Shown here: positions 1,676-64,000 of the stretch, piece by piece
Position numbering within the stretch: the stretch's first letter is position 1
Layout: every line of letters begins with the position of its first letter
IMG/VR virus record: IMGVR_UViG_3300038809_000036
DNA: 64,000 nucleotides
Source of the DNA: a virus
Reading direction: 5' to 3' (one strand)
Position numbers and translations under genes: made by a program
The notes under the pieces: generated by a model
The model's input: the letters and a program-made list of their open reading frames with translations, nothing else
Databases searched by the model: none
What the model was told of the DNA's origin: nothing

Positions 1676-1742
1676 TGTTGTAGCCTATCGCATCTGGCTA
1701 TTGGATATGGTATGCTTCTCTCGATTAGGCGAGAGAATTGCC

Positions 1743-5510: not shown

Positions 5511-5518
5511 ACCACGGC

Positions 5519-6610: not shown

Positions 6611-6888
6611 AGGGAATGAGCATGGGCGTGAAATCCACCGCTGCAGGTCGCAAACCTCCCGCTAGAGACGACTTCAACGCCGCTGATGCTAGGTTCATGC
6701 AAGACATGCTGGCTCATCACGAAATGGCAATCGCCATGTCAGAAAATATTATTAAAGACGGCAAGAATTCGAGCGTTTTAAAGCTTGCAAGGTCGATCAA
6801 GTCAGCGCAGTTGGATGAGATTTTGTTGATGCGTAAGTGGCTTTATAGCCGGGATCTTCCGGAAGATTCTTCGAAGGTGAAAATGTGA
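6607..6888 (+). CDS. DUF305 ferritin-like protein (moron)
   Basis: DARFMQDMLAHHEMAIAMS...LARSIKSAQLDEI..MRKWL pattern; markedly AT-rich. Confidence 0.75.
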   Translation: MKGMSMGVKSTAAGRKPPARDDFNAADARFMQDMLAHHEMAIAMSENIIKDGKNSSVLKLARSIKSAQLDEILLMRKWLYSRDLPEDSSKVKM

Positions 6889-6940
6889 GCGCTAAGCAAG
6901 GCCCTACGTATGAAACCTTTAAAAAGGTTGGAGGCACGCA

Positions 6941-7045
6941 ATGAAGACTATGAGTATGGGTGGCAAGCCGAAGCTGACAAAGAACCCAGGTGGCGGGCAG
7001 AGGAAGACAAAATCTGCAAAGGGTGCGACGAAGGGCAAGAAGTAG
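6941..7045 (+). CDS. 34-aa Lys/Gly-rich peptide MKTMSMGGKPKLTKNPGGGQRKTKSAKGATKGKK (not in ORF track)
   Basis: GGAGG RBS at 6930-6934, ATG 6941, TAG 7043-7045. Confidence 0.55.
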   Translation: MKTMSMGGKPKLTKNPGGGQRKTKSAKGATKGKK

Positions 7046-7061
7046 GCTACGCTCCTCGCTG

Positions 7062-7289
7062 ATGGCCGACACCCGTCGCACTGAGAAGCCCGAACGCCCG
7101 ATCCCGCACATCCAATGGACATGCGGGACGTGCGAGCGTGAGGCTGGTGTGGCGAGCAATGCCACGACCCGGATCCGCAAGGGCGGCTACGTCAACCTGA
7201 AGACCGGCAAGCTTACGGGCGGCACGTTCTACGAGGTCTGCGCCATGTGCTTGGCGCGCGGGCGGACGACGATCGTCTGCCGGGCCTGA
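7062..7289 (+). CDS. Small zinc-ribbon protein
   Basis: CGTC...CAMC pairs; ATG 7062. Confidence 0.55.
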   Translation: MADTRRTEKPERPIPHIQWTCGTCEREAGVASNATTRIRKGGYVNLKTGKLTGGTFYEVCAMCLARGRTTIVCRA

Positions 7290-7330
7290 ACACCGAAATC
7301 TGAGATCCGCGCCCCGAGCGTGGTCACCCG

Positions 7331-7375
7331 CCGGCAGCCATGGCGCTGACCGGCCTCTCCCGCCATGGGGCGGGA
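7331..7375 (+). promoter_or_regulatory. Two ATGG-loop hairpins in the leader of the 7391 gene
   Basis: CCGGCAGCC-ATGG-CGCTGACCGG (imperfect) and TCCCGCC-ATGG-GGCGGGA (perfect 7 bp). Confidence 0.7.
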
Positions 7376-7390
7376 CGACGGAGCCCCACC

Positions 7391-7831
7391 ATGTCGAACC
7401 TGACCGACTTCGCACGGAGTGAACTCGCGCGCCTGCGCACGCCCAGCGACGAGCCCGACAAGATGCAGGACGCCATCGAGGCGAACGTGCTCAAGATCGT
7501 GGAGGTGTTCGCCGAGGCGGGCCACAGCGGCTCGTCCGCGCCCTACACCCTTGGCATCCTCGAAAAGGTGCTGCGCTTCGAGCCCCTGACGCCGCTCACC
7601 GGCGAAGACGATGAGTGGTTCGTCCATGATCACGACGACGAGTGCTACGCGCAGAACAAGCGCTGCGGCCGCGTCTTCAAGCGGCGGAACGGTACCGCTT
7701 ACGACATTGAGGCGGCCGTTTTCCGCGATCCCGATGGCTCGTGCTGGACCGGCAAGGAGAGCCGCCGCGACGTGACGTTCCCCTACGTGCCGAAGACCGA
7801 GATTGTCGACCGGCCAGCCACCGTCGCCTGA
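7391..7831 (+). CDS. Hypothetical phage protein
   Basis: GGAG RBS, ATG 7391, phage-typical codon usage. Confidence 0.7.
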   Translation: MSNLTDFARSELARLRTPSDEPDKMQDAIEANVLKIVEVFAEAGHSGSSAPYTLGILEKVLRFEPLTPLTGEDDEWFVHDHDDECYAQNKRCGRVFKRRNGTAYDIEAAVFRDPDGSCWTGKESRRDVTFPYVPKTEIVDRPATVA

Positions 7832-7852
7832 CCCCACCTCTTCTCGACTTTT

Positions 7853-7896
7853 CCGGCCGCGATGGCGCGCGCCGGGCCCTGCGTCATGGGACGCAG
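7853..7896 (+). promoter_or_regulatory. Two ATGG-loop hairpins in the scaffold leader
   Basis: CCGGCCGCG-ATGG-CGCGCGCCGG and CTGCGTC-ATGG-GACGCAG. Confidence 0.75.
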
Positions 7897-7914
7897 CCAT
7901 AGGAGCCCACCACC

Positions 7915-8739
7915 ATGAAGCTCAAAAAGGTCTACGACACCGAAGCCGACATTCCCGCCGACGTCCTCTCGTTCTACGAGGAGCGCGACGGCAAGTGGCA
8001 TCTCACCTTGGAGATCGAGGGTAGCGCCAACCAAGACGACGTGACCCGGCTGAACGGCGCTCTCACGAAGGAGCGCAACGACCACAAGGCGACCAAGGAC
8101 AAGCTGCGCGCGTTCGATGGCCTCGACCCGCAGGAAACCCGCGATCGCCTCGACAAGCTGACCGACATCGAGGCCAACCCGGACGCGACGGTCGAGCAGC
8201 GCGTGACCAGCGAAGTCGAGCGGCGCCTGAAAGCCAAGACCGCGCCACTGGAACGGCAGATCGCCCAGGCCAACGAGGCGAAGGCCGCCGCAGAACGCGA
8301 GCGTGACGAGACCCGCGGCACCCTGCGCGGCCGCACCATTTCCGACGAGGTCCGCGCCGCGGCCTCGAAGGCCAAGATCATCGATTCCGCCGTCGACGAC
8401 GTGCTGATGTACGGCACCAGCGTGTTCGAGGTCGGCGAGGACGGCCAGGTCGTCACCAAGGACGGCGTCGGCGTCACCCCGGGCCTGAAGCCCGAAGCGT
8501 GGCTCTCCGACATGAAGGAGCGCCGCCCGCACTGGTGGCCCGCCTCGCAGGGCGCCGGCTCGCTCGGCGGCCGCGGCGGTTCGGCCGGCGGCGACAACCC
8601 GTTCACGGCCGAGGCCTGGAACGTCACCGAGCAGGGCAAGATCGCCGCGGCCGACCTGGCGAAGGCCGAGCGTCTCGCGAAGCTCGCCGGCACCACGCTC
8701 GGCGGCGCCAAGCCGGCCCCGCGCAACCGCGCGGCCTGA
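7915..8739 (+). CDS. Capsid scaffolding protein
   Basis: Charged coiled coil, HWWPASQGAGS/NPF C-terminal motifs, upstream of the capsid gene. Confidence 0.8.
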   Translation: MKLKKVYDTEADIPADVLSFYEERDGKWHLTLEIEGSANQDDVTRLNGALTKERNDHKATKDKLRAFDGLDPQETRDRLDKLTDIEANPDATVEQRVTSEVERRLKAKTAPLERQIAQANEAKAAAERERDETRGTLRGRTISDEVRAAASKAKIIDSAVDDVLMYGTSVFEVGEDGQVVTKDGVGVTPGLKPEAWLSDMKERRPHWWPASQGAGSLGGRGGSAGGDNPFTAEAWNVTEQGKIAAADLAKAERLAKLAGTTLGGAKPAPRNRAA

Positions 8740-8750
8740 AGGAGGTCGCT

Positions 8751-9227
8751 ATGGCTGAGAAGACCACGCCGACCAACGAGCAGGCGGTCTCCGACAAGGT
8801 GGATCCGCCGCGGCTGCGCGGCCGCCTGCCGATCCTCTGCCTCGACTTCGACGGTGTCCTTCACGGATATCAGAGCGGCTGGCAGGGGGCGGCGATCATC
8901 CCCGATCCGCCGGTGCCGGGCGCAGTTGAGTTCCTCCACGCCGCCGTCGAGCGGTTCCGCGTGGTGATCTACAGCAGCCGGTCAGGTCAGCCCGGCGGTA
9001 TCGATGCCATGCGCGGCTGGCTGCACATGCAGGTTCGCGCGGTGATCGAGGATCGCGGTGAGGCCGAGCATGTGCTCGGGCGCCTTGAGTTCGCGACCGA
9101 GAAGCCCGCGGCCTTCGTCACTATCGACGACCGCGCCATCACGTTCACGGGCACGTGGCCGAGCCTCGACGAGGTCGCCGCTTTCCAGCCCTGGAACAAA
9201 AAGCCGCCGATCGCTGGCGCGGCCTGA
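8751..9227 (+). CDS. HAD-superfamily phosphatase/nucleotidase-like protein
   Basis: ILCLDFDGVLH (DxD motif I), SSR (motif II), IDDR (motif IV); GGAGG RBS. Confidence 0.75.
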   Translation: MAEKTTPTNEQAVSDKVDPPRLRGRLPILCLDFDGVLHGYQSGWQGAAIIPDPPVPGAVEFLHAAVERFRVVIYSSRSGQPGGIDAMRGWLHMQVRAVIEDRGEAEHVLGRLEFATEKPAAFVTIDDRAITFTGTWPSLDEVAAFQPWNKKPPIAGAA

Positions 9228-9235
9228 CCCTTTCC

Positions 9236-9348
9236 GGCGGCCCATGGGGGCTGCCAACACCATCACCGGCCGCCGCCATGGGGCGCGCGGCCACCCTTCC
9301 TCGACCAAGAGCCCGAACACGACCGGCCGGCCATGGGGCCCGGCTTGG
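9236..9348 (+). promoter_or_regulatory. Three ATGG-loop hairpins in the major capsid leader
   Basis: 9236-9255, 9268-9292 and 9323-9348, each a GC stem closing C-ATGG-G. Confidence 0.75.
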
Positions 9349-32861: not shown

Positions 32862-32899
32862 AGCCCCGCCGGCAGCCGCCGCGCGGGGCTTTTTCGTTT
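32862..32899 (+). terminator. Rho-independent terminator ending the late operon
   Basis: AGCCCCGC...GCGGGGCT stem followed by TTTTCGTTT. Confidence 0.75.
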
Positions 32900-32921
32900 C
32901 AGCGATCTCGATCCGGTCAGA

Positions 32922-34066: not shown

Positions 34067-34114
34067 ACGTTCGGGACGTGGGGGTCGCAGGTTCAAATCC
34101 TGCCACTCCGACCA
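34067..34114 (+). mobile_element. attP core: 3' half of tRNA-Pro(CGG)
   Basis: ACG-TTCGGGA-CGTGG anticodon arm, GGTTCAAATCC T-arm, ends CCGACCA; 5' half/D-arm absent; 85 bp from the integrase stop. Confidence 0.88.
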
Positions 34115-34199
34115 AATTTCCCGAGTAGTTACAAGCCTCTACGCGGGGCAGGGGGTGGTGGCCAAATTGGCCCGCCCACGGAATGGCCCAGGAAAAGGG

Positions 34200-35420
34200 T
34201 CACTTCCGCCGACCGCTGAAAGCCTGGGCCGCGCCAGCCTGGTGATCCGGCGAGTGGTGCGCATAGACGTTCTCAATCGTCTCCAGCGTCATCCCGAGCA
34301 TGCCAGCGGCCTCCCACGGCTCGACGCCCGCCTGCATCATCCAGGTCGCCGCGGTGTGGCGCATCGTGTGCGGCACCACCTTCGCGTCGAGCCCAGCGTC
34401 AGCGAGGCATCCCTCCCACCCGGTCCGGATCGGCGTCGAGAGCGAATCGCCTGTCGTGGTGTGGATCACGTGCAAGACACCGCCGTCCTCGCGGTCGATC
34501 GCGGCCCAGCGGCGGAGGTGCGGCATCAGCCGGTCGGCGACCTTCGCCGGCGGCCGGCGCTTCTTCGTCTCCCGCTCCCCCTCGCCGCGACGGTAGATCC
34601 GGCCGCGATCTAGGTCGAACCAGCCGCCGGTTGTGTTCGGGTGCCACTGCAGAAGCTGGATCGCTTCATGCCGGGTGCCTGTGTAGATGCCGATCAGGAT
34701 GAAGCGCCGGATGTGCCGGCGGCGCGTGCGGGTGACCTTATCGCGCAGCTTCAGCCGGCCGTCCGGGTGCTTCGCCCAGGATTTGGCCCAGGGATCCCAG
34801 ATCAGGCCCATCGACGCGCCGAGCAGCCGGGCGGCTTCGGACCGGGTGAGCCAGCGCTCCCGCGCCTGAGCTTTCTCCGGCAGGGTCACCTTCGGCACCG
34901 CCGTCAGCGTGTGCTCGCCATGGTAGAGGTTGATCGCGGCCCGGAGAACCTCGAGGTCGCGGCGCGCGGTGGCAGTCGTGACCCGCTTCTTCAGGGCAGG
35001 GCCGGATTTGGCGGCCTTCAGGCCCTGACTGGTGCGCCACTCGACGTAGTCGCGGCAGGTCTGGCCCTTAATCTCCGAGACGCGCCTCTCGCCCCAGAAC
35101 TCCAGCAGCTTCGCGATGTAGGCGAGCATCTCATCGTAGCGCGACAGGGTCCGCGCATCGACGGGCTCCTGGGGCTTCTTGGCCTGGGCGTAGAAGGTCA
35201 GGACGTCCGTGACGTCGAGTTGATGGGGAGCACTCGCGCCGACCGTCGAGACGTGTTGTTGCCCGATGAAGGCCGCAAGGAAGCGCGCAGCGCCGCTATG
35301 GTCATCAGGCCCGCATTCCGTGCTGATTTCCTTGCCTCGGTAGAGGACGACCCAGACAGGATCGCGGCCGGCGCGCTCTCGGAGCCAGAGTCGGGGCGGC
35401 TTGGTTTTGCGGCCCGGCAT
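34200..35420 (-). CDS. int: Tyrosine integrase
   Basis: TGTRHEA (R), K, HTMRHTAATW (HxxR), YAH (Y). Confidence 0.93.
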   Translation of the reverse strand: MPGRKTKPPRLWLRERAGRDPVWVVLYRGKEISTECGPDDHSGAARFLAAFIGQQHVSTVGASAPHQLDVTDVLTFYAQAKKPQEPVDARTLSRYDEMLAYIAKLLEFWGERRVSEIKGQTCRDYVEWRTSQGLKAAKSGPALKKRVTTATARRDLEVLRAAINLYHGEHTLTAVPKVTLPEKAQARERWLTRSEAARLLGASMGLIWDPWAKSWAKHPDGRLKLRDKVTRTRRRHIRRFILIGIYTGTRHEAIQLLQWHPNTTGGWFDLDRGRIYRRGEGERETKKRRPPAKVADRLMPHLRRWAAIDREDGGVLHVIHTTTGDSLSTPIRTGWEGCLADAGLDAKVVPHTMRHTAATWMMQAGVEPWEAAGMLGMTLETIENVYAHHSPDHQAGAAQAFSGRRK

Positions 35421-39868: not shown

Positions 39869-40660
39869 TCATGCGGCGGCACTCGGATCCGCGAACAGCG
39901 GACCGTGATCGGGCGGCGCGAGGGCATTTCGGATCCGGCGCTCGGCTATCGCGCAGTACGCCGGGTCTTTCTCAATCCCGACGAAGCGGCGACCCGTGTT
40001 CATGCACGCGACGCCAGTGGACCCAGAGCCCATGGTCGCGTCGAGAACCGTTGCGCCATCATCCGAGTAGGTTCGAAGCAGGTACTCAAGCCAAGAAGTC
40101 GGTTTTTGGTTGGGGTGCGACTTGTCCGGGTCGTCGTTGTTGACGATGTCGAAGCGCTGAACGGAACGCGGATATCGAAGTGTCGAGCCGCCGTATTCGG
40201 TGGATTTGAACGCGCCGTACACGCGCTGCTCTGCGTCCTTGCGAGTAGCCTTATTCCCAGGCCTATGGCCCTCGGTCATCTGCGGCCGGTAGAACGAAGC
40301 GTCGCCGAACACTAAGACGCTCTCGTGCGCCTGCATTGGACGCCGCTTAGCGTTCAGGTGCCCGCTGGCCTTGTTCTTCTCCCAAATCCACTCGTGCCGA
40401 AATGCGCGTGGGTTGCTCATGACCAGCGCGGACGTGAAGGGCTGAGCGGCGAACAGAACAATGGCGCCCTTGCAGAGCCGGTTGAACTGCTCCCAGAGAG
40501 GGGCGAACGGGATCACTGCATCCCAAGGGCTCTGCGTCGTGCCGTAGGGCAGATCGCACAGCACCATGTCGATGCCGCCAGCCTCAAGCGCGGGCATGAC
40601 TTCGAGGCAGTCGCCCAGCCATAGGCTGGCGCTGTTGGTCTGATAGATCGGCCCACTCAT
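39869..40660 (-). CDS. Orphan DNA amino-methyltransferase (N6A/N4C, beta class)
   Basis: DLPYG motif IV precedes HPNQKP and DATMGSGSTG motif I. Confidence 0.9.
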   Translation of the reverse strand: MSGPIYQTNSASLWLGDCLEVMPALEAGGIDMVLCDLPYGTTQSPWDAVIPFAPLWEQFNRLCKGAIVLFAAQPFTSALVMSNPRAFRHEWIWEKNKASGHLNAKRRPMQAHESVLVFGDASFYRPQMTEGHRPGNKATRKDAEQRVYGAFKSTEYGGSTLRYPRSVQRFDIVNNDDPDKSHPNQKPTSWLEYLLRTYSDDGATVLDATMGSGSTGVACMNTGRRFVGIEKDPAYCAIAERRIRNALAPPDHGPLFADPSAAA

Positions 40661-51161: not shown

Positions 51162-51844
51162 CCTGGCCATTCGGCGCTCTTCAGCTCGCCGCCCTGCGCC
51201 GGCTCGCATCCTCTCCCTCGTCGGCGCTTGAGATCGGCAAGGCCGCCGAGCACCTCGTGTGCGCTGACCTGATGCTGAGCGGATATCGGGCCTTTTTGAG
51301 CGATCAGGGCCTTCCTTACGACCTGCTAGTCGACCTTGATGGGCGCATTGTCCGAGTGCAGGTCAAGGCGACTTGTTTCGCTCGGAACATCAGCGCGGCT
51401 GGTCGCAACCAGCGCATCGCGTACACCTGGCACGTCCGAGCGCGGGGTAAGGCCCGGAAAGGCGAGCGTCTCGACGCCTCTCACTGCGACGTCGTCGCCC
51501 TGGTCGCTCTCGACCTGCGAGCCATCGCTTATCTGCCGATCAGCATTTGCGGCCAGACCGTGCAGCTGGCCCCGCCGAGCTCAGCGGCCGCCCCTGCATT
51601 CCGGTCCGGATCACGTTGGGCCCGGACCGTTGCAGACTTCCCCTTTGCGGAAGCGGTCGGCGGCGATTTGGCCTCCTACAAGGCGGCATTCGGCGACCTG
51701 ACCCGCTGCATTCGCGGGCACGAGTTCACGCCCGAAAACACCTCGATCGCGTCGAACGGCTCCCGAGTGTGCCGCGCCTGCCGCCGCGAGAGCGGCCTGC
51801 GCTATCAACAGTCCAAGGAGGCCGCTCGTGTCGCCGCTGAGTAG
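51158..51844 (+). CDS. PD-(D/E)XK endonuclease with C-terminal zinc finger
   Basis: GKAAEHLV...YDLL...VQVKAT; CIRGHEFTPENT...CRAC. Confidence 0.8.
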   Translation: MTWPFGALQLAALRRLASSPSSALEIGKAAEHLVCADLMLSGYRAFLSDQGLPYDLLVDLDGRIVRVQVKATCFARNISAAGRNQRIAYTWHVRARGKARKGERLDASHCDVVALVALDLRAIAYLPISICGQTVQLAPPSSAAAPAFRSGSRWARTVADFPFAEAVGGDLASYKAAFGDLTRCIRGHEFTPENTSIASNGSRVCRACRRESGLRYQQSKEAARVAAE

Positions 51845-52427
51845 CTGGCCGTTTGGGCGCCTCCCGCCTCTAGCCTTCGATCTGATCGTCGCAGACCCTC
51901 CGTGGTCCTTCACCCTTCGTTCGGCGAAGGGCGAGGCGAAGAGCCCGCAGGCGCAGTACGCCTGCATGCCGCTCGATGCGATCAAGGCCCTCCCGGTCGC
52001 GCAGCTTGCCCGCGGCGACGCCTTCCTCTGGCTCTGGGCCACGAACCCGATGCTGCCGCAGGCGCTCGAGGTGATGGCCGCATGGGGCTTCACGTTCACG
52101 ACCGCCGGCACCTGGGTGAAAACCACCTCGGGCGGCAAGCTCGCGTTCGGCACCGGCTATGTCCTGCGGAGCGCCTCCGAGCCCTTCCTGATCGGCAAGT
52201 TCGGCCGGCCGCGCGCTGGGCGGTCCGTGCGCAGCGTGATCATGGCGCCGGCTCGCGAACACAGCCGGAAGCCCGAAGAGGCTTACGCCGCGGCCGAGGC
52301 GCTACTGCCGGGTGCGCTGCGTCGAGCCGACCTGTTCTCGCGCGAGGGTCGCCCCGGCTGGGATGCCTGGGGCCACGAGGTCGGCAAGTTCGACCAGCCC
52401 GCGTCCGTCGCCATGGCAGCGGAGTGA
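51828..52427 (+). CDS. MT-A70 family adenine methyltransferase
   Basis: ADPPW, LWLWAT, WVKTT, REHSRKP. Confidence 0.9.
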   Translation: MSPLSSWPFGRLPPLAFDLIVADPPWSFTLRSAKGEAKSPQAQYACMPLDAIKALPVAQLARGDAFLWLWATNPMLPQALEVMAAWGFTFTTAGTWVKTTSGGKLAFGTGYVLRSASEPFLIGKFGRPRAGRSVRSVIMAPAREHSRKPEEAYAAAEALLPGALRRADLFSREGRPGWDAWGHEVGKFDQPASVAMAAE

Positions 52428-54120: not shown

Positions 54121-55082
54121 TGGCCCGAATCCGCACGATCAAGCCGGAGTTCTGGACCTCCGAACAGGTGATGGAGTGTTCGACGAATGCTCGACTCCTG
54201 TTCATCGGGCTCTGGAATTTTTGCGACGATGCCGGCCGCATGGTCGCCTCGGAGAAGCGGATCAAGGCGAGCGTCTTTCCGTCCGACGACTTCACGGCCG
54301 AAAACGTTCGGCGAATGCTCGACGAATTGTCGTCGAATGGCCTGATCCTGCTCTATGTCATTGATGGCAAAGAGTATCTTCAGGTGACGGGCTGGCATCA
54401 CCAGAAGATCGACCGGCCTCAGAAGTCCAAAATCCCTGATCCTCCCGATCCTAATTCGCCGAACGGTCGTCGAACGATCGACGTAGGAAGGGAAGGGAAT
54501 GGAATGGAAGGGAAAGGAGATAAAACCCCCGCCGCCGTGGCTCACCCCGCGCGCCCGACCCTGAACCAGGCCGAGCCGGCAGCCGTCGCGACCGCCGAGG
54601 CGGCGGGGCCGGGCCTGGCCGAGGGCTGGAACACCCGGGCCAACTTCGACCGGGTCGAGGCCCGCGTCCGGTCCGCCCTCGGTGGCGGCCCGCAGGACCT
54701 CCGCATCGGTCCGATCGCCAAGCTGGAGGCCGATGGGCTCGACCTCGAAGCCGAGATCGTGCCGGCCCTGCTGGACATCGCCGCCTCGTCCCGGGTGCCG
54801 ATTCGGACCTGGACGATCTACGCCGACAGGGTCGCTGAGCGGGTAGCGGCGCAACGCCAGAGCCGCGTCGCTCAGGGCCTAGCCGCGGTGCCGGCAGCCC
54901 CGACACCCGCCGAGGAGCTCGTCGACCTCGGTGTCTCGGGACAGTGGCCCGAGCCGACCCTACGGAAGTGGATCGAGCGGTTCCGTCAGGACGCCGGCGC
55001 CTGGTCCGAGGCGGTGTTCGGGCCACCCCCCGGCCAGCCCGGATGCCGGATCCCGTCCCGGCTGCTGCTCGAGGCGGCGTGA
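54120..55082 (+). CDS. Replication initiator (lambda O-like N-terminus)
   Basis: MARIRTIKPEFWTSEQ...ARLLFIGLWNFCDDAGR. Confidence 0.8.
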   Translation: MARIRTIKPEFWTSEQVMECSTNARLLFIGLWNFCDDAGRMVASEKRIKASVFPSDDFTAENVRRMLDELSSNGLILLYVIDGKEYLQVTGWHHQKIDRPQKSKIPDPPDPNSPNGRRTIDVGREGNGMEGKGDKTPAAVAHPARPTLNQAEPAAVATAEAAGPGLAEGWNTRANFDRVEARVRSALGGGPQDLRIGPIAKLEADGLDLEAEIVPALLDIAASSRVPIRTWTIYADRVAERVAAQRQSRVAQGLAAVPAAPTPAEELVDLGVSGQWPEPTLRKWIERFRQDAGAWSEAVFGPPPGQPGCRIPSRLLLEAA

Positions 55083-55285
55083 TGGTCCGGCACCGGCGCA
55101 TCTCCGGCTCGGCCCTGCGCTGGGAGCGCATGCACCGAGATGCCGCGAAGGCGCTGGCCGCCCAGGCGGCGGAGGCCATGGCGGCTCGGTCAATGCCGGA
55201 GCCGAACCCTTCCCCAGCTGCGGGGGAGGTCGCACGACCGGACGCGCAAGCCGCGCGGACGGGTCAGGGGGCATCGGGAGCGTAG
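55082..55285 (+). CDS. Hypothetical protein
   Basis: TGATG-coupled, 67 aa. Confidence 0.45.
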
Positions 55286-55286
55286 C

Positions 55287-56126
55287 GTGAGCCAAAGGCT
55301 GACCCGGAAGCAGCGGCTGCGGTTGAAGCTGGAGCGGGAGCGAGCCCACAAGGCGTTCATGCGCCGAGGCGAGATCCTGCAGGACGAGCGGGCCGAACGC
55401 GACGAGGCGGACGCAGCGAAGGCGGACGAGCCCACGGAGAGCCCACGGGAGCGGCACGAACGGGAGCGCCGAGAGCGGGAGGCCGAGCGCATCGCCGCCC
55501 GCCGGGCCGAGCACGAGCTGCCGCCCGGCAAGCAATGGGCTATGGTGCAGGCCTGCGTCGGCCACACCGGCAAGTTGTGCGACAAGCTCCGGAACGCCGG
55601 CATCCCGTTCTTCCGGCCCCGGGACGAGATCGAGCAGCGGCTTGCCTCTGGCCGCATCCGCCGAATCCGGATGCCGCTATTCGACCACACCGTGTTCGTC
55701 GGTTTGGAGCAGCGGGGCCAACTGGAGCGCTTGGCCGTCGAGCATCCCTGGCTGATGGAGCGGCGGGTCTACGGCACCATGCCGTGCATGCGTCACGACC
55801 GGGCGTTCGCTTGGGACGTCGAGCGGATCGAGCGGCGGCAGACCGGAGTCGACGAGGCTGGCAACCCGGTGATCGATCCGGTGACCGTGCCCGACCAGGA
55901 GATGCGCTCGTTCGCGGAGGTGCTGATCAGGGCGGCGCCGATCCTTGATGACCTCGACAGGATCGAGATCGGCGAGACGGTGCGGGTGGTCGATGGCCCG
56001 TTCGCCAGCTTCGACGGGATCATCGAGGAGACCTACGAGAAGCTGAACCGATACAAGGTCTCGGTGAACATTTTCGGCCGAGCCACGCCGGTGGAGCTGG
56101 AGCGTCGGCAGGTTGAGCGGACGTGA
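55287..56126 (+). CDS. NusG-family antiterminator (NGN+KOW) with Arg-rich N-terminal extension
   Basis: [10 protein letters not shown] (NGN); [19 protein letters not shown]...[12 protein letters not shown] (KOW); last gene before the late operon. Confidence 0.88.
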
Positions 56127-56140
56127 TCCACACCCTGCAG

Positions 56141-56311
56141 TTGACTCGTCGTCCGGGCTCTGAATCTATGCGGCCCAGGACGACGCCCCTTGTACTCCCC
56201 GGCGACGGGTCGAAGGATGAGCTGGTGGCCCTGCCCCTGAGGCTTCTCAGGCGGCGAAAATGGCGGCTCGTGCCCGCCGAACACCCACCTCGAAATAGCG
56301 AGAACTAGCCA
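56141..56311 (+). promoter_or_regulatory. Candidate late promoter and leader
   Basis: TTGACT at 56141, AT-rich GAATCTAT at 56162; hairpin CCTGAG-GCTT-CTCAGG; GGCGGCGAAAATG. Confidence 0.45.
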
Positions 56312-56680
56312 ATGGCTCGTGGCGGATCGCTCCCGGGCGAGCGCCGCGGCGGGCGTCAGAAGGGTACGCCGAACAAGCGGACGGAGGCGCGGGCAGCTTT
56401 CCAGGCAGGTCGCCTCGATGTCTCCGGCGCATCTCCCCTCGACATCATCCTGGGCGCGGCCCGGGCGGCTTGGGCGGAGGCCCACCGCACAGATGGCGTG
56501 ATTGACCTGCGCATGGCCAGGGTCGCTGCCGACATCGCCAAGGACGCCGCGCCTTACCTGCACTCGAAGCTCATGCCAGCCTCGCAGCCCGGCGGCGACG
56601 ACGACATGGCGAAGGCCCGGCGCATCAAGGGCATGCTCGACGAGATCGAGGGCGCGATTGACCAGCCCGACACCGAGTAG
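56312..56680 (+). CDS. terS: Terminase small subunit
   Basis: GERRGGRQKGTPNK N-terminus, AAPYLHSKL motif, upstream of terL. Confidence 0.85.
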   Translation: MARGGSLPGERRGGRQKGTPNKRTEARAAFQAGRLDVSGASPLDIILGAARAAWAEAHRTDGVIDLRMARVAADIAKDAAPYLHSKLMPASQPGGDDDMAKARRIKGMLDEIEGAIDQPDTE

Positions 56681-58010
56681 CGCACTCACCCCGCGCTGGA
56701 CGCGCCTACGGTTCCACCCGACGCAGCGGGCCTACTGGACCAGCCCGCACCGCTTCAACACCGTCCCGGCCGGCCGCCGATCCGGTAAGACCGAGCAGGC
56801 CAAACGCAAGCTGATCAAGGCGGCGCTCCGCGGCACGGCGTTCGAGCGGCCCCGATTCTTCGCTGGAGCACCGACCCGGGACCAGGCGAAGCGGATCTAC
56901 TGGGACGACCTGAAGGCGATGATCCCGGCCGAGCTGCTGCTGGGGCGCCCATCCGAGACCGACCTGTCGATCCGGCTGGTGAACGGGTCCGAGCTCGTGG
57001 TCGTCGGCCTCGACAAGCCGGAGCGCATCGAGGGCCAGCCCTGGGACGGCGGCGTGCTCGACGAGTTCGCGAACATGAAGGCCCATGCCTGGGCGGCGAA
57101 CGTCCGCCCGGCGCTCTCGGATCGGCAAGGGTGGTGCGACCTGATCGGCGTGCCCGAAGGCCGGAACCACTACTACGACCTCGACCGCATGGCGCGGGCC
57201 GAGATGCAGGCGAAGGGTGCCGGCTCCGAGTGGGGCGCCTTCACCTGGACCTCCGCCGAGATCCTGCCCGCGGAGGAGATCGCCTCCGCCCGCCGCGACC
57301 TCGACGAGCTGACGTTCCAGCAGGAATACGAGGCCTCCTTCGTCAACTTCGAGGGTCGGGCCTACTACCCGTTCACCGAGGCGGTGCATTGCCAGCGCCT
57401 CACCTACGACCCGGCCCGGCCGCTCGCCCTGTGCTTCGACTTCAACGTCGATCCGGGCGTCGCGGTCATCGCGCAGGAGCAGCGCCTACCGAACGGCCAG
57501 GACGGCACCGGCATCATCGGTGAGGTCCACATCCCGCGGAACTCGAACACCCCCGCGGTATGCCGTCGGATCATCCAGGACTGGGGCCGGCACGCGGGCC
57601 GCGTGGTGTGCTTCGGCGATGCGTCGGGCGGCGCCCGGGGCTCGGCCAAGGTGGCGGGCTCGGACTGGGACCTGATCCGGCGCGAGCTCGGCGGCACGTT
57701 CGGCCAGCGGCTCTTCTTCGAGGTGCCAGCGGCGAACCCCGCGGTGCGCGCCCGGGTCAACGCGGTGAACACCCGGCTGAAGGCCGGCGACGGCACGGTC
57801 CGCATGATGGTCGACCCCGCCCGGGCGCCGAACGTCGTGAAAGACCTCGAAGGCGTCCGGCTGCTGGCCGGTGGCTCTGGTGAGATCGACAAACGGGCCG
57901 ACCCGGCGCTGTCGCATATAAGTGACGGCCTAGGCTATTTCATAGCGAGAGTTTTTCCGATTGCAGAGACCGGCAAGGTAGCTACCGGGACGACTGTCGG
58001 AATGTATTGA
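56658..58010 (+). CDS. terL: Terminase large subunit (repeat copy)
   Basis: Same as 323-1675. Confidence 0.93.
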   Translation: MTSPTPSSALTPRWTRLRFHPTQRAYWTSPHRFNTVPAGRRSGKTEQAKRKLIKAALRGTAFERPRFFAGAPTRDQAKRIYWDDLKAMIPAELLLGRPSETDLSIRLVNGSELVVVGLDKPERIEGQPWDGGVLDEFANMKAHAWAANVRPALSDRQGWCDLIGVPEGRNHYYDLDRMARAEMQAKGAGSEWGAFTWTSAEILPAEEIASARRDLDELTFQQEYEASFVNFEGRAYYPFTEAVHCQRLTYDPARPLALCFDFNVDPGVAVIAQEQRLPNGQDGTGIIGEVHIPRNSNTPAVCRRIIQDWGRHAGRVVCFGDASGGARGSAKVAGSDWDLIRRELGGTFGQRLFFEVPAANPAVRARVNAVNTRLKAGDGTVRMMVDPARAPNVVKDLEGVRLLAGGSGEIDKRADPALSHISDGLGYFIARVFPIAETGKVATGTTVGMY

Positions 58011-58077
58011 TGTTGTAGCCTATCGCATCTGGCTATTGGATATGGTATGCTTCTCTCGATTAGGCGAGAGAATTGCC

Positions 58078-58707
58078 GTGACTGACCCGATTGCTATCAG
58101 CGAGACTGCCCAAGACTATGAAGGAGAGCGGTTTTATCGCCACGACGGCCCAAAGCGTTATTTCCGTCGGCCGCAGCGGTCTGGTGAAACGTACCTTCAC
58201 CGCGTTGTGTGGTCCCGGCATAACGGCGCCATTCCGACAGGTGGTCACGTCCACCACAAGGACGGCGATCGCGGCAACAATGGCATCGGCAATCTCGAAC
58301 TGCTGACGCCGAGGCAGCACGTTCAGCACCATCGCGATCAGGACCCCGAAAGGTGGAAGGCTGATCGGGCGCGCGGACTGGAAGCCGCACGAGAACGCGC
58401 AAAAGAATGGCACGCTAGCCCTGAGGGCCGAGCATGGCACCGCGCGCATAGGGCAACGCATGCCAGTGCGGTTGAGGCCAGAACCATTGCCTGCACCTGC
58501 GAGGCATGCGGAACGGCTTTCATGGCCACGAGAAAAGCTCAGTTCTGCTGCCGAGCATGCAAAGCCGAAGGACGGCGCCGATCGGGCGTGGATGACGAGA
58601 CCCGCACGTGCGCTCACTGCGCCGAGCCGTTCAAGGTGAACCGCTATGTCGCCAAACGATTCTGCTCTCGCTCATGCTCGTCGCGTTCTAGGTCTGTGAC
58701 GGCCTGA
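58078..58707 (+). CDS. HNH endonuclease (repeat copy)
   Basis: Same as 1743-2372. Confidence 0.85.
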   Translation: MTDPIAISETAQDYEGERFYRHDGPKRYFRRPQRSGETYLHRVVWSRHNGAIPTGGHVHHKDGDRGNNGIGNLELLTPRQHVQHHRDQDPERWKADRARGLEAARERAKEWHASPEGRAWHRAHRATHASAVEARTIACTCEACGTAFMATRKAQFCCRACKAEGRRRSGVDDETRTCAHCAEPFKVNRYVAKRFCSRSCSSRSRSVTA

Positions 58708-60356
58708 TGCCGCTCTCGTCGAAGCATCCGAAATACGCGGAGGCCGCGCCCGACTGGAAGGTGGTTCGCGACACCCACGCCGGTGAGCGCCGGGTGAAGG
58801 AGCTCGGCACCGAGTACCTGCCGGCGACTTCCGGCATGATCGCGGCCGGGTTCATGAGCGGCGTCAGCAGCCATGCCCTGATCGGCCGGCAGCGCGAGGA
58901 TGGCCAGGTAGAGGCCCGCGTCGGCGGCTCATACCTCAACGAGGGCCAGGCCCAGTACGACGCCTACCGCTGCCGGGCGGTGTTCCACCCGCTGGTCGCC
59001 GCCTCCGCCGAGGCGCTGATCGGCATCATGCATCGCAAGCCGCCGACGATCGAGCTGCCCAAAAAGCTGGAATCGCTGCGGGAGGACTGCACCCAGGACC
59101 GCGAGGGCCTGGCGACGCTGCTGCGGCGCATCAACGAGGAGCAGCTGCAAACCGGACGGCTCGGCCTGCTGCTCGACGTGCGCGGCGATCTCGGGCCAGG
59201 GGCGCTGCCCTACCTCTCGACCTACACCGCCGAGAGCATCCTGAACTGGGGCGTGGACCGGGTCACCTCGCCCGGTAAGCTCCTGTTCGCGGTGCTCGAC
59301 GAGAGCGGCGACCAGCTGCAGGACGATCTGAGCTACGCGCACCAGCGGCGCTACCTTGTGCTGGGCGACGCCGCCACGGAGTTCGTGAGGCGGGCCGCCG
59401 GCGCGGACGCCGAGATGCCGGCCGAGGGCTACGTCGCTGCTGCGGTGACCGACACGGACGAGGCTGCGGCTCTGCCGTTCAAGGCGCCGCAGATCGCCGG
59501 CCAGGGTCTCCCCGAGATCCCGTTCGTGACGATCGGCGCCAAGGACCTGCAATGGGATCCGGACGCGCCGCCGCTGCTGCGGGTCGCCTCCATGGCGCTG
59601 GCGATCTACCGAGGCGAGGCCGACTACAGGCACGCGCTGTTCATGCAGGGGCAGGAGACGCTGGTCGTCATCGGCGCCAAGAGCGGGAGCGCCTACGCGG
59701 AGCCGGGCGAGGCCGTGAAGGGCCAGCCGCTACAGCTCGGTGCCAACGGCCGTATCGACCTCGAGGTGGACGGCGACGCCAAGTTCATCGGCGTCTCGTC
59801 CACGGGCCTCTCGGCCATGCGGGATGCGATCCGGGACGACAAGACCGCAGCCGCGGAGATGGGTGCCCAGATCATCGGCGACCGGTCCGGCGGCGCGGAA
59901 TCGGGCGACGCCCTGGAGATCCGCGTCGCGGCCCGGACCGCCACTCTGTCGAGCGTCGCGCTCGCCGGCGCGCAGGGTCTTGAGCGCATCCTGAAGATGG
60001 CCGCCACCTGGGTCGGGGCGGACCCGGACGAGGTGAAGGTCACCCCGAACCTCGACTTCGCCGGAACGCCGATCACCGGCTCCGACATCCTGCAGATCAC
60101 CCAGGCCAAGAGCATGGGCCTGCCGCTCTCCTGGGAGAGCATCCACGACTGGCTGGCCCGGAAGGGCTTCACCTCCAAGACCTACGAGGAGGAGGAGGAC
60201 CAGATCGAGGGCGAGGGGCCAGCCCTCTCCGGTTCGGGAGAGGGTGGCAGCAGCCTCGACGACGGCGACGACGAAGCCACGGACGACGACGCGGCCGCGG
60301 TCACGGATGACGACCTGAAGGGCCTGTTCGCGCCCGAGACTCTGGCCCAGGCCTGA
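58707..60356 (+). CDS. Portal protein (repeat copy)
   Basis: Same as 2372-4021. Confidence 0.85.
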   Translation: MPLSSKHPKYAEAAPDWKVVRDTHAGERRVKELGTEYLPATSGMIAAGFMSGVSSHALIGRQREDGQVEARVGGSYLNEGQAQYDAYRCRAVFHPLVAASAEALIGIMHRKPPTIELPKKLESLREDCTQDREGLATLLRRINEEQLQTGRLGLLLDVRGDLGPGALPYLSTYTAESILNWGVDRVTSPGKLLFAVLDESGDQLQDDLSYAHQRRYLVLGDAATEFVRRAAGADAEMPAEGYVAAAVTDTDEAAALPFKAPQIAGQGLPEIPFVTIGAKDLQWDPDAPPLLRVASMALAIYRGEADYRHALFMQGQETLVVIGAKSGSAYAEPGEAVKGQPLQLGANGRIDLEVDGDAKFIGVSSTGLSAMRDAIRDDKTAAAEMGAQIIGDRSGGAESGDALEIRVAARTATLSSVALAGAQGLERILKMAATWVGADPDEVKVTPNLDFAGTPITGSDILQITQAKSMGLPLSWESIHDWLARKGFTSKTYEEEEDQIEGEGPALSGSGEGGSSLDDGDDEATDDDAAAVTDDDLKGLFAPETLAQA

Positions 60357-61621
60357 TGCCCGCCGCCCGGAAATCGGGCCCGAGCAACCCGGGCTTCGAC
60401 GCCAAGCATCCCCGCGCGGCCGGCGGCCGGTTCGGCAGCAAGGGCGGGACCGAGAAGCCGGGCCGCAAGCTGATCGGCGAGGAGCGGCTCAAGACCTCTG
60501 GCGTGACGGTTGACGACGCGATCGAGGTCCTGTCCAGCCGGGTCCGCGCCTACCAAGGCGCCAAGACGGTTCGGGACTTCGTCGAGGACCACCCCAAGGG
60601 TCGCGCCTACGCGCTGCGCAAGCTGGCGGCAGACCACAAGGCCGGGCGGATCGGGTTCAAGGGCGCCGCACAGGCGCCGAAGCAGGCTGCGGGCTCCGGG
60701 GCGGCCATCGACCCGAAGCTGTCCGACGGCTCGTTCCGGGCCAACACCGAGCGGGTCACCGAGGGGCTGAAGGGCGACGACTTCCTGATCTCGCTCAACG
60801 GCAGCAAGCGCTACCTGATGGGCATCACGGTCGATCAGGCCGCAGCGAACCACCCGAAGGGCCGCGCGGCCGGACTCAAGCAGATCGCCGCCGACCTGAA
60901 GGCCGGGCGGCTGCAGGCGGAGCGGACCAAGGGGGCGAAGGCCAAGGCGCCAGCCAGGAACGCGGATATCGAGCCCGGCGAGGGTATGCGCCCCTCCATG
61001 CTGCCGGGTGAGGAATCGTTCTCGTGGGGCTCGGGCACGACCCGCACGTTCCGCGACCAGGTTCGGAAGGGTTACGACGCGGTCCCGGCCAAGATCCGGA
61101 CCATGCTCCGTGAGAAGGGTGTGACGATCAGCGGGCCGAAGAGCGCGTCGCAGTTCGACAGCAGTTTCGCCGGTAGCGACGCCCGAGGCCACACCGCTGG
61201 CTCGACGCTGGAGCACGCCCCGGGATTTTACCGGCCGACCTTCAAGCAGGTGGTCGTCAGCGAGCAGCACCTCGACGTGTACGCGCCGGGCAAGGGGTAT
61301 CGGAAGGCCGACGATCCTGCCGGCATCATCCGGCACGAGATCGGGCACGCCGTCGATTGGAGCCAGGGGCGGCTGAGCAACAAGCCCGAGTTCGCCAAGG
61401 CCTTCAATGAAGACCTTCGCGCGTTCGAGCGGGGCGGTGGCAAGCGTACCGATCCGCGGTATGCCTACTACCTGCAGCGGGATGATGCCGGGCCGTCCGA
61501 GATGTTCGCGGAGCAGTTCAACCAGCACCTGGGCGGTTCGGGCGACCCCGGCAGCGACCTGCGGGCGACGTTCCCCAGGACGGCCGGCTACATCGCGGAT
61601 CTCGTGAAGAGGCTGTCGTGA
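60356..61621 (+). CDS. Zinc metallopeptidase-domain protein (repeat copy)
   Basis: Same as 4021-5286. Confidence 0.7.
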   Translation: MPAARKSGPSNPGFDAKHPRAAGGRFGSKGGTEKPGRKLIGEERLKTSGVTVDDAIEVLSSRVRAYQGAKTVRDFVEDHPKGRAYALRKLAADHKAGRIGFKGAAQAPKQAAGSGAAIDPKLSDGSFRANTERVTEGLKGDDFLISLNGSKRYLMGITVDQAAANHPKGRAAGLKQIAADLKAGRLQAERTKGAKAKAPARNADIEPGEGMRPSMLPGEESFSWGSGTTRTFRDQVRKGYDAVPAKIRTMLREKGVTISGPKSASQFDSSFAGSDARGHTAGSTLEHAPGFYRPTFKQVVVSEQHLDVYAPGKGYRKADDPAGIIRHEIGHAVDWSQGRLSNKPEFAKAFNEDLRAFERGGGKRTDPRYAYYLQRDDAGPSEMFAEQFNQHLGGSGDPGSDLRATFPRTAGYIADLVKRLS

Positions 61622-61845
61622 AGCAGCGGTGGTTCTTCCAGATCGTCGACGGCGCCGTGCTCATGCGGGCCCGGGTCGAGGTAGACGGCGCGATTGCGGA
61701 CGCTCAGTCCCGCATCGAGCCGGGCGATGACAGCGGAATCAAGGGCCTGACCTATGAAGCCCTGGCCGAGGCCGGCGGCGGGGTCCTTGAGATCGACGAT
61801 GACGGCTCCTTCACGATCACGTCGGCGGACGACGAGCAGGACTGA
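61618..61845 (+). CDS. Small acidic protein (repeat copy)
   Basis: Same as 5283-5510. Confidence 0.6.
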   Translation: MKQRWFFQIVDGAVLMRARVEVDGAIADAQSRIEPGDDSGIKGLTYEALAEAGGGVLEIDDDGSFTITSADDEQD

Positions 61846-61853
61846 ACCACGGC

Positions 61854-62945
61854 ATGCCGGCGACGCTCAACGAGACGCTGCTCGACGCCCAGGTCTCGCA
61901 CCTGATCGGCCTTCAGCGCCTCGGCTCGGGCATCCTGCGTAAGATCCTGGCCCTGTTGAACCGCACGGACAGCGACATCGCCGACACGATCCGCGAGCGC
62001 CTCGCCGACGTCGAGCCCGGGACGATCGAGACCACCTTCACCACCGAGCGGCTGAACCTGCTGCTCGACGCCATCCGAGCCATCGGCGACAGGGTGGGTG
62101 ACGAGATCCAGGCCCGGCTGCTGAAGGAAGCGCTCGGCCTGGCCGAATACGAGGCCGAGTTTCAGGTCAGCACGATCACCGAGCACCTGCCGGTGCGCTT
62201 CGACGTGGTGCAGCCCACCATCGAGCAGCTGCAGGCCGTGGTGACCAAGCGACCGTTCCAGGGTCGGCTGCTGCGGGAATGGGCCAAGGGCCTCGGCAGC
62301 GACCGCAGCCGCCGCGTCCATGATGCCATCCGGATCGGGATGGTGGAGGGCGAGACCACCGACCAGATCGTCCAGCGCGTGCGTGGGCGCCGGTCAATGG
62401 ACTACAAGGACGGGGTGCTCGAAATCAGCCGCCGGGACGCCGAGGCGGTCGTCCGGACGGCGGTGACCCACATCGCCAGCGGCGCCCAGCAGGCGACCTA
62501 CGCGGCGAACGCCGACCTGGTGAAATCCTGGCGCTTCGTGGCGACGCTGGACATGCGCACAACAGTTTCGTGTGCATCCCTTGACGGCAAGGTCTTCCCG
62601 GTGGGCAAGGGGCCGATGCCTCCCCGGCATTTCCGGTGCCGCAGTTCCTCGGTTCCCGTCACCGCATCGTTCCGAGACCTCGGCATCGACCTCGACGAGG
62701 TCCCCGAGGGCATGCGGGCATCCATGGATGGGGCGGTCCCGGCGAGCCTGACCTACGGCGACTGGCTGAAGAAGCAGCCGGCCTCCGTGCAGGACGACAT
62801 CCTCGGCTCGACACGCGGCAAGCTGTTTCGGGCGGGCGACCTGCCCATTGACCGATTTACCGACCGGGCCGGCGCCGAGTACACGCTGGACCAGCTGCGG
62901 CGGCGCGAGGCGGGGGCTTTCAGGAAGGCGGGGTTGGCGGCATGA
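61854..62945 (+). CDS. MuF/gp7 head morphogenesis protein (repeat copy)
   Basis: Same as 5519-6610. Confidence 0.9.
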   Translation: MPATLNETLLDAQVSHLIGLQRLGSGILRKILALLNRTDSDIADTIRERLADVEPGTIETTFTTERLNLLLDAIRAIGDRVGDEIQARLLKEALGLAEYEAEFQVSTITEHLPVRFDVVQPTIEQLQAVVTKRPFQGRLLREWAKGLGSDRSRRVHDAIRIGMVEGETTDQIVQRVRGRRSMDYKDGVLEISRRDAEAVVRTAVTHIASGAQQATYAANADLVKSWRFVATLDMRTTVSCASLDGKVFPVGKGPMPPRHFRCRSSSVPVTASFRDLGIDLDEVPEGMRASMDGAVPASLTYGDWLKKQPASVQDDILGSTRGKLFRAGDLPIDRFTDRAGAEYTLDQLRRREAGAFRKAGLAA

Positions 62946-63223
62946 AGGGAATGAGCATGGGCGTGAAATCCACCGCTGCAGGTCGCAAACCTCCCGCTAG
63001 AGACGACTTCAACGCCGCTGATGCTAGGTTCATGCAAGACATGCTGGCTCATCACGAAATGGCAATCGCCATGTCAGAAAATATTATTAAAGACGGCAAG
63101 AATTCGAGCGTTTTAAAGCTTGCAAGGTCGATCAAGTCAGCGCAGTTGGATGAGATTTTGTTGATGCGTAAGTGGCTTTATAGCCGGGATCTTCCGGAAG
63201 ATTCTTCGAAGGTGAAAATGTGA
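62942..63223 (+). CDS. DUF305 protein (repeat copy)
   Basis: Same as 6607-6888. Confidence 0.75.
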   Translation: MKGMSMGVKSTAAGRKPPARDDFNAADARFMQDMLAHHEMAIAMSENIIKDGKNSSVLKLARSIKSAQLDEILLMRKWLYSRDLPEDSSKVKM

Positions 63224-63396
63224 GCGCTAAGCAAGGCCCTACGTATGAAACCTTTAAAAAGGTTGGAGGCACGCAATGAAGACTATGAGTATGGGTGGCA
63301 AGCCGAAGCTGACAAAGAACCCAGGTGGCGGGCAGAGGAAGACAAAATCTGCAAAGGGTGCGACGAAGGGCAAGAAGTAGGCTACGCTCCTCGCTG

Positions 63397-63624
63397 ATGG
63401 CCGACACCCGTCGCACTGAGAAGCCCGAACGCCCGATCCCGCACATCCAATGGACATGCGGGACGTGCGAGCGTGAGGCTGGTGTGGCGAGCAATGCCAC
63501 GACCCGGATCCGCAAGGGCGGCTACGTCAACCTGAAGACCGGCAAGCTTACGGGCGGCACGTTCTACGAGGTCTGCGCCATGTGCTTGGCGCGCGGGCGG
63601 ACGACGATCGTCTGCCGGGCCTGA
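63397..63624 (+). CDS. Zinc-ribbon protein (repeat copy)
   Basis: Same as 7062-7289. Confidence 0.55.
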   Translation: MADTRRTEKPERPIPHIQWTCGTCEREAGVASNATTRIRKGGYVNLKTGKLTGGTFYEVCAMCLARGRTTIVCRA

Positions 63625-63725
63625 ACACCGAAATCTGAGATCCGCGCCCCGAGCGTGGTCACCCGCCGGCAGCCATGGCGCTGACCGGCCTCTCCCGCCA
63701 TGGGGCGGGACGACGGAGCCCCACC

Positions 63726-64000
63726 ATGTCGAACCTGACCGACTTCGCACGGAGTGAACTCGCGCGCCTGCGCACGCCCAGCGACGAGCCCGACAAGATG
63801 CAGGACGCCATCGAGGCGAACGTGCTCAAGATCGTGGAGGTGTTCGCCGAGGCGGGCCACAGCGGCTCGTCCGCGCCCTACACCCTTGGCATCCTCGAAA
63901 AGGTGCTGCGCTTCGAGCCCCTGACGCCGCTCACCGGCGAAGACGATGAGTGGTTCGTCCATGATCACGACGACGAGTGCTACGCGCAGAACAAGCGCTG
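63726..64000 (+). CDS. Hypothetical protein (repeat copy, cut by the window end)
   Basis: Same as the 5' part of 7391-7831. Confidence 0.7.
   Translation, partial: MSNLTDFARSELARLRTPSDEPDKMQDAIEANVLKIVEVFAEAGHSGSSAPYTLGILEKVLRFEPLTPLTGEDDEWFVHDHDDECYAQNKR

Follow-up and report, generated by a model that had tools for sequence, protein, structure and literature searches.

A NusG paralog with a basic N-terminal arm as a probable late-operon antitermination factor of a temperate Methylobacterium phage

The 64,000-nucleotide stretch of viral DNA analyzed here (IMG/VR virus record IMGVR_UViG_3300038809_000036; the whole stretch is called the window below) comes from a temperate Methylobacterium phage and encodes, just ahead of the late genes, a NusG paralog with an N-terminal arm of 81 residues. 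Judging from its sequence and its setting, this protein is probably a processivity or antitermination factor of the late operon, that is, a functional analogue of the lambda Q protein that is built on a NusG scaffold and loaded at the late leader. The gene travels together with the late promoter and the leader as a cassette across mosaic prophages. This cassette is compact and consists of three parts: the basic-arm NusG paralog, an invariant GANTC-bearing late promoter, and a leader that differs by protein subtype.

Specialised NusG paralogs antiterminate long operons, RfaH by way of the ops DNA element and LoaP by way of an RNA hairpin, and the lambda N protein binds the boxB hairpin through an Arg-rich motif. 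To our knowledge, late-gene switching in temperate phages of Alphaproteobacteria is largely unexplained.

Results

A divergent NusG paralog

The gene of the paralog (55287..56126, + strand) encodes 279 amino acids between a GTG start and a TGA stop codon. The start at 55287 is supported by a Shine-Dalgarno sequence (GGGAG, 55276–55280) 6 nucleotides (nt) upstream, by the coding composition across the arm region (a G+C content of 0.90 at third codon positions, GC3, and of 0.49 at second positions, GC2), and by the N-termini of homologues, which open MSQRLTRKQ or MTRRLTRKQ and match this start. A longer, ATG-initiated form from 55140 is possible, and the homologues give it no support.

The protein is a member of the NusG/Spt5 superfamily and of PHROG 6386. 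The phrog_6386 profile (‘transcription antiterminator’) matches residues 78–278 with an E value of 1.8e-21, i.e. it does not span the arm. Alignment of the family profile to a NusG alignment with hhalign gave a probability of 99.9% over residues 82–279, collinear over the NGN domain (82–215). The AlphaFold2 model (pLDDT 87) consists of two arm helices, an NGN domain with an inserted β-hairpin and a KOW barrel, and a Foldseek search with this model returned NusG chains at an E value of 1e-12, with RfaH ranked lower. The first-pass annotation of this DNA had described an NGN and KOW protein preceded by about 80 extra residues; its quoted translation reads as given, and these comparisons agree with the description. 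Close homologues were already known, having been deposited in NCBI as ‘NusG’ (Methylobacterium prophage proteins), and all of them come from Methylobacterium or Methylorubrum genomes and metagenomes.

The two domains have diverged unequally. The NGN domain (residues 82–215; 55530..55931, + strand) departs strongly from other NusG proteins: it carries an insertion of ~35 residues (about residues 160–195), lacks the FPGY motif, and is not matched by the Pfam NusG_N model even at an E value of 10. The KOW domain (residues 225–279; 55959..56123, + strand) is close to that of housekeeping NusG. It is 67% identical to the C-terminal domain (CTD) of Brevundimonas NusG and 60% identical to that of E. 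coli NusG (2jvv), on which it superimposes with a root-mean-square deviation of 0.9 Å; its profile match to E. coli NusG in the PDB has an E value of 6e-29, and its Pfam KOW score (21.0 bits) lies slightly below the cut-off of 22.3. It keeps the GPFASF segment and one further conserved segment. In E. coli NusG, these two segments are the S10- and Rho-binding loops.

With the model of the housekeeping NusG equivalog (TIGR00922) the paralog scores 60.3 bits against a cut-off of 135.7, and its gene sits in a phage replication operon rather than in a secE-nusG-rplK context. Because its scores fall far below the curated cut-offs for NusG, RfaH, LoaP and UpxY alike, the paralog is not the housekeeping factor.

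A conserved basic arm

In the paralog, 83 residues, 24 of them lysine or arginine, precede the NGN tryptophan, compared to 4–14 residues in housekeeping NusGs. Structure prediction of the arm, which the first-pass annotation had suggested, gives two long helices at high confidence (residues 7–47 and 53–75). The head of the arm (residues 1–30; 55287..55376, + strand), predicted to be helical from residue 7, has 11 lysines and arginines, a pI of 12 and a conserved motif that begins RLTRKQRL..K. It is followed by an acidic linker (residues 31–50; 55377..55436, + strand) that varies in length and sequence among homologues (alignment columns 35–62), and by a conserved, E/R-rich segment (residues 51–81; 55437..55529, + strand) that contains the second AlphaFold2 helix.

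This plan is kept in ~50 prophage homologues from Methylobacterium and Methylorubrum at 45–90% identity. Distant full-length relatives from a library of 1.8 billion proteins have 40–90 residues before the NGN tryptophan, with 17–27 lysines and arginines and often a T.KQR-like start. The conservation of the arm in homologues and the basic extensions of distant relatives therefore make the arm a real, selected feature of a wider NusG-like group, and all members of this group whose surroundings were examined lie in prophages or viral contigs. The arm alone matches no Pfam family and has no convincing neighbour in the ESM Atlas (best score 0.75).

By its composition, the arm most likely binds nucleic acid, the basic head being carried on a helical stalk and adding specificity or extra grip. 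It is unlikely, in our judgment, that the protein is the same antiterminator with an arm that instead binds a protein (NusA, Rho, the ribosome or another part of RNA polymerase) or masks its own NGN domain in an autoinhibitory manner, comparable to the helical KOW of RfaH. Such a role would suit the second helix, which is mixed in E and R and neutral overall (pI 7.0), as well as the presence of two long, confidently predicted helices, and it would agree with the lack of conservation in the loop of the leader hairpin described below, which leaves no basis for a boxB-like reading. The charge of the conserved head argues against it, however, as does the very basic segment that precedes the NGN domain in every relative, even in those with short arms, a feature typical of nucleic-acid binding.

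Linkage of gene, late promoter and leader

In a blastn comparison of the early region with relatives, 50–90 nt of the leader (56136–56231) proved to be 87–91% identical to non-coding DNA in L084, L085, L086 and L087. The matching leader of these four relatives does not lie beside the NusG-like gene but past cargo genes, just upstream of the packaging genes, and their NusG-like genes share a DNA identity of only 65–73% with the paralog gene, below that of the leader.

AT-rich cargo was found inserted exactly between the NusG-like gene and the late promoter in L082 (8838–9528), L084 (8871–12423), L085 (8841–10412), L086 (8826–9500) and L087 (8826–9538), with an acyltransferase and an ABC substrate-binding protein among the examples. 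Cargo seems to enter preferentially at this junction.

To examine linkage, we searched two public collections with the promoter pattern alone and found 22 contigs. A NusG-like gene was present upstream in 12 out of the 12 contigs that had the phage-type leader and enough upstream DNA. In L089, L093, L097, L103, L104 and the phage studied here, the stop codon of the NusG-like gene is located 15 nt from the −35 element or inside it. Furthermore, prophages whose terminase modules are unrelated share the cassette.

Three independent contigs (L093, L095, L098) carry the same promoter with a different proximal leader, and the protein encoded upstream has ~25 residues before the NGN domain and keeps the FPGY motif. 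Together with L111 they represent a second cassette type (type B, as opposed to type A of the phage studied here), in which the leader reads GGACG.CC.GA.G.G followed by a tetraloop hairpin and the NusG-like protein is ~200 amino acids long, with a short basic N-terminus and an intact FPGY. A promoter that stays constant while the leader changes with the protein subtype is as expected if the leader carries a protein-specific recruitment signal.

These observations bear on the possibility that the paralog is an untargeted NusG mimic, which would compete with host NusG or titrate Rho or S10 via its KOW domain and damp Rho-dependent termination everywhere, with no loading site. The P4 Psu protein has a comparable effect on Rho-dependent termination. 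A KOW domain that is 60–67% identical to that of housekeeping NusG, with its S10 and Rho contact loops kept, fits an untargeted mimic, and no terminator or ops-like site is proven in the leader. We nevertheless find this explanation improbable considering (i) the tight linkage of the gene to a leader whose conservation exceeds its own, (ii) the change of the leader with the protein subtype, and (iii) the strong divergence of the NGN domain, which is typical of specialised paralogs.

The late promoter

The conserved late promoter (56140..56172, + strand) begins 15 nt 3′ of the paralog stop codon and is composed of a −35 element GTTGAC (CTTGAC in relatives), a 13-nt variable spacer and the invariant 14-mer TCTGAATCTATGCG. 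In the alignments of relatives, TTGAC is invariant and usually embedded in CTTGACTC. The element looks to be a σ70-type promoter with TTGACT and ATCTAT separated by 17 nt and with a TGn extended −10, from which transcription would start near 56176–56178. A consensus promoter scan did not list it.

Two GANTC sites are present in the promoter, one that overlaps the −35 element (GACTC, 56143–56147) and another within the invariant 14-mer (GAATC, 56162–56166), and a third is found in the promoter spacer of many relatives (CCGAATCGG). Genome-wide, GANTC is depleted three- to four-fold (62 sites vs 168–267 expected). The phage encodes two DNA methyltransferases (39869–40657, − strand; 51828–52427, + strand), and the late promoter may be controlled by methylation.

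The same promoter core (TTGAC-N13-TCTGAATCTATGCG) occurs in four contigs in other settings: directly before a transposase-like open reading frame (ORF) that begins MNRDDLKRLSKDELIEMV in L108, L112 and L117, and, in L109, in a different context. In L117 and L109, the two of these contigs with enough upstream DNA, the core has no NusG-like gene nearby. The promoter core is therefore a signal read by the host rather than one tied to the paralog, and mobile elements seem to share this type of promoter.

It is very improbable that the paralog is an activator of the late promoter, with its arm bound to promoter DNA and aiding initiation rather than elongation. The invariance of the promoter and its position 15 nt from the stop codon would be in line with such a role. 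A consensus −35 and an extended −10 should, however, make an activator unnecessary; two very different protein subtypes have an identical promoter, which is also used where the protein is absent; and the NusG fold is an elongation-factor fold.

The late leader and its hairpin

The proximal part of the leader (type A; 56178..56222, + strand) is conserved and reads GGACGAC..CCCCTTGTACTCCCC, then the hairpin, then GGGTCGAAGGATGAGC. Its motifs occur once in this genome. In the alignments its core takes the form G.ACTCCCC, a small hairpin, GGGT.GA and, in most cases, AGGATGAGC, and the variable stretch between the promoter and this core contains an extra hairpin in half of the cases.

The hairpin (56198..56209, + strand) pairs CCCG with CGGG around a GCGA loop. 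In relatives the stem is preserved, as GC pairs are replaced by AU or GU or the stem is lengthened; three C-G pairs are invariant, and the loops vary freely. Across 12 related sequences, 88% of the cells are paired, compared to 18–56% when the partner strand is slid, which gives the stem modest support; the pair 89–96, for example, is GC eight times, GU twice and AU once. G-U pairs work on the sense strand only, so that it would be the RNA or the non-template DNA that folds into the hairpin.

The segment that follows the hairpin, GGGTCGAAGGAT|G (GGAT|G, 56218/56219), fits the pause consensus G(−10), Y(−1), G(+1), with the foot of the hairpin ~10 nt upstream. By analogy, we hypothesize that it may be a hairpin-stabilised pause site.

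The distal leader (56223..56311, + strand) is specific to this phage. It contains small hairpins, with no U-tract terminator and no C-over-G skew. In the distal leaders of some relatives (L085, L088, L091, L096, L098 and L110, of both leader types), ~80–110 nt past the promoter, a GC-rich hairpin precedes the conserved CTCTTTGCT..G..TCTGCC. This module, which is absent from the window, could be either an intrinsic terminator or an element resembling boxA. Other relatives carry the alternative distal module GTCAGGCCAACCCGATCGGGACCGCCTGAC.

Rfam produced no match in 55900–56500 at E values up to 1, and the folding of the whole leader is unremarkable (z −1.1). Two further candidates were set aside: a long hairpin of this phage at 56148–56184, which overlaps the promoter and has no conserved counterpart in relatives, and a leader peptide whose start would be the ATG in GGATGAGC, an ATG that L086 and L097 lack.

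ATGG-loop hairpins of the head module

Five or six GC-rich hairpins with an ATGG loop (AUGG in RNA) are located at 7358–9345 (7358–7375, 7855–7896 and 9236–9345), in gaps around the scaffold and capsid genes. The first-pass annotation had named these hairpins or the late leader as a possible target of the paralog and had suggested their co-occurrence with the arm across prophages as a check. The leader holds up, being conserved and physically linked to the gene family. The hairpins do not: the late regions of seven relatives with the paralog contain none. They belong to the head module of this phage, are most unlikely to be the target of the paralog family, and are possible signals of transcript processing or stability. 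That the arm reads AUGG-loop hairpins scattered in the late operon is thus hardly credible: such hairpins do exist between the head genes, but besides being missing from the relatives they are confined to a single 2 kb stretch. The earlier observation is in this way confirmed and its interpretation partly supported, the kind of protein and the leader being right and the AUGG hairpins wrong.

Genome organization and the slot of the gene

The final 7,665 bases of the window (56336–64000) are an exact repeat of its first 7,665 (1–7665). The window thus represents a phage genome of 56,335 base pairs, circular or terminally redundant, that was read past its end, and coordinates of at least 56336 duplicate 1–7665, including terS, terL, HNH, portal, a 421-amino acid ORF and MuF.

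The early block runs rightward and comprises RuvC, HNH, an MT-A70 methyltransferase, DnaB, the replication initiator, a 67-amino acid ORF (55082..55285, + strand) and the NusG paralog. The paralog stop codon is followed by a 185-nt gap and by the first late gene, a 122-amino acid ORF (56312..56680, + strand) that overlaps the terL ORF. This ORF is a probable small terminase by position only; it belongs to phrog_15261, of unknown function, and has no Pfam or NCBIfam match. The gene thus is the last before terS, as had been annotated, in so far as terS is defined by position. The earlier statement that no Q or N homolog was recognised elsewhere also stands, with no member of either family found among the ~47 ORFs scanned against PHROGs.

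In seven relatives and two more distant ones, the genes follow the order repressor, cro-like gene, methyltransferase, DnaB or another helicase, initiator, small ORF and NusG paralog, so that the paralog always closes the rightward replication operon. On its 3′ side, inserted cargo genes in some relatives and then terminase and head genes follow. The late modules of these relatives contain three terminase families (GpA-type, Terminase_6 and TerL_ATPase). Since the downstream terminases differ, the paralog belongs to the early regulatory module and occupies the slot of Q in lambdoid phages. The alignments of homologues and this gene order bear out the description of a specialised NusG paralog with a conserved basic arm in the lambda Q slot of a temperate phage.

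At the position of the 67-amino acid ORF, relatives have a small ORF of unrelated appearance. Neither this ORF nor the small ORFs at the same place in relatives matched a GcrA-like or other recognisable family.

The late block extends rightward (+ strand) for ~33 kb from the terS position through terL, HNH, portal and the head and tail genes and ends at a strong terminator with a hairpin and a T-run (32866–32900). Between MuF and the next head gene, the AT-rich stretch 6605–7340 contains the sole consensus σ70 promoter-like matches of the late region and looks like an inserted cargo segment. The integrase gene (34200–35420, − strand) adjoins the 3′ end of a tRNA gene (T-arm and acceptor stem, about 34080–34125), which presumably is the core of the attachment site. 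The leftward block contains recombination genes, a methyltransferase and a repressor-like gene.

Discussion

In the mechanism that we favor, the last gene of the early (replication) operon would supply the paralog, and host RNA polymerase would start unaided at the late promoter, which we take to be strong, because the near-consensus −35 and the extended −10 should make help unnecessary. The paralog would join the elongation complex at the proximal leader (the hairpin and its conserved flanks, about 56189–56222), which it would read as nascent RNA or as non-template DNA through its divergent NGN domain, its arm, or both. With its basic head, variable linker and helical stalk, the arm could reach the nascent RNA or upstream DNA. 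The paralog would then replace host NusG on the polymerase, stay bound, suppress pausing and exclude Rho, while its NusG-type KOW domain, which keeps the S10 contact surface, would couple the lead ribosome. The late operon would in this manner be transcribed to the terminator at its far end.

More tentatively, and with a chance that we rate as rather low, the paralog may be a single-polypeptide module in which an N-like Arg-rich arm on a NusG scaffold takes hold, at a programmed pause, of either the nascent leader hairpin or the non-template strand and tethers the protein permanently to RNA polymerase, with arm and leader co-evolving in pairs, type A leaders going with long arms and type B leaders with short ones. 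If so, one phage protein would do the work of lambda N plus host NusG.

Several points weigh against a late antitermination factor recruited at the leader. Binding to RNA polymerase is an assumption for an NGN domain that does not have the FPGY motif of other NusG proteins, and a NusG-type KOW domain could bind Rho too, which would favor termination. The covariation of the hairpin comes from 12 related sequences, and three of its five pairs show no change among them. The promoter core, found in other settings as described above, is not part of a specific recognition. The link between arm length and leader type is drawn from two clades only and could be explained by shared descent. Finally, no intrinsic terminator or rut-like C-rich stretch is present from the late promoter to terS in this phage, which counts against a simple, discrete Q-like switch; as canonical terminators are not enriched inside the late operon either, antitermination has no obvious target.

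Should the proposed function hold, operon specificity of NusG proteins would have a new route, namely an N-terminal nucleic-acid-binding extension, and the cassette could serve as an orthogonal antitermination part in Methylobacterium engineering.

Comparison with known systems

The paralog shares with lambda Q and the pR′-qut region its position as the last gene of the early rightward operon, a constitutive-looking late promoter directly after it, and the joint movement of regulator and site among mosaic phages. Unlike Q, to which it has no relation in sequence or fold, it is associated with a variable part that is a transcribed leader and not the promoter spacer, and no tR′-like terminator is seen in this phage. 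The likeness to lambda N and boxB, which for N itself is one of composition only, consists of a short basic N-terminal helix rich in T, R, K and Q and a small GNRA-loop (GCGA) hairpin in the leader. The arm of the paralog is, however, fused to NusG, whereas N acts with NusG, and the leader contains no boxA and a hairpin of which the stem is conserved but not the loop.

RfaH of Proteobacteria, which the ops hairpin of non-template DNA recruits, has the same NGN and KOW architecture and, like the protein described here, would serve one long, horizontally mobile operon through a single leader loading element, as we propose. The paralog differs from it in several respects: the ops element GGCGGTAGnnTG is absent from the leader (three one-mismatch matches elsewhere compared to 4.6 expected by chance), the TIGR01955 score is 26.1 against a cut-off of 144.5, the KOW domain is NusG-type in sequence and is predicted to be a β-barrel and not a switchable helix, and the 81-residue arm has no counterpart in RfaH.

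According to PMC12691694, no bacterial NusG-like protein other than LoaP of Firmicutes, which recognises a UNCG hairpin, is known to bind a specific RNA. A small leader hairpin near the promoter is common to both systems, and some relatives, but only some, have a leader hairpin with a UUCG loop. In the phage studied here, the loop is GCGA and is not conserved in relatives. LoaP binds RNA by its NGN and KOW domains, has no arm, and regulates host gene clusters rather than being a phage gene; the NF033641 score of the paralog is 23.8 against a cut-off of 125.

The UpxY/opsX paralogs of Bacteroides are locus-specific, with recruitment sites that co-vary with the protein class and that are multipartite, including a nascent RNA hairpin before a pause (PMC11685472). 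The fit of GGGTCGAAGGAT|G to the geometry of a hairpin-stabilised pause would be a parallel to this arrangement. UpxY has no arm, though, and with NF033644 the paralog scores 45.8, below the cut-off of 100; nor was an UpxZ-like partner recognised, the neighbouring small ORF matching no family.

Reviews of the NusG family do not describe phage paralogs with N-terminal arms (PMC7819879, PMC7593976), and the sole mention that we found in the literature is a passing annotation in Helicobacter prophages (PMC11321410). In the open-access literature we found no experimental study of phage NusG paralogs, none of them as late regulators, and no account of the arm or the leader cassette. New here are the conserved arm and the cassette of gene, promoter and leader. 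If our reading of them is correct, the few specialised NusG paralogs with a known recruitment signal, i.e. RfaH, LoaP and UpxY, are joined by a class that phages carry.

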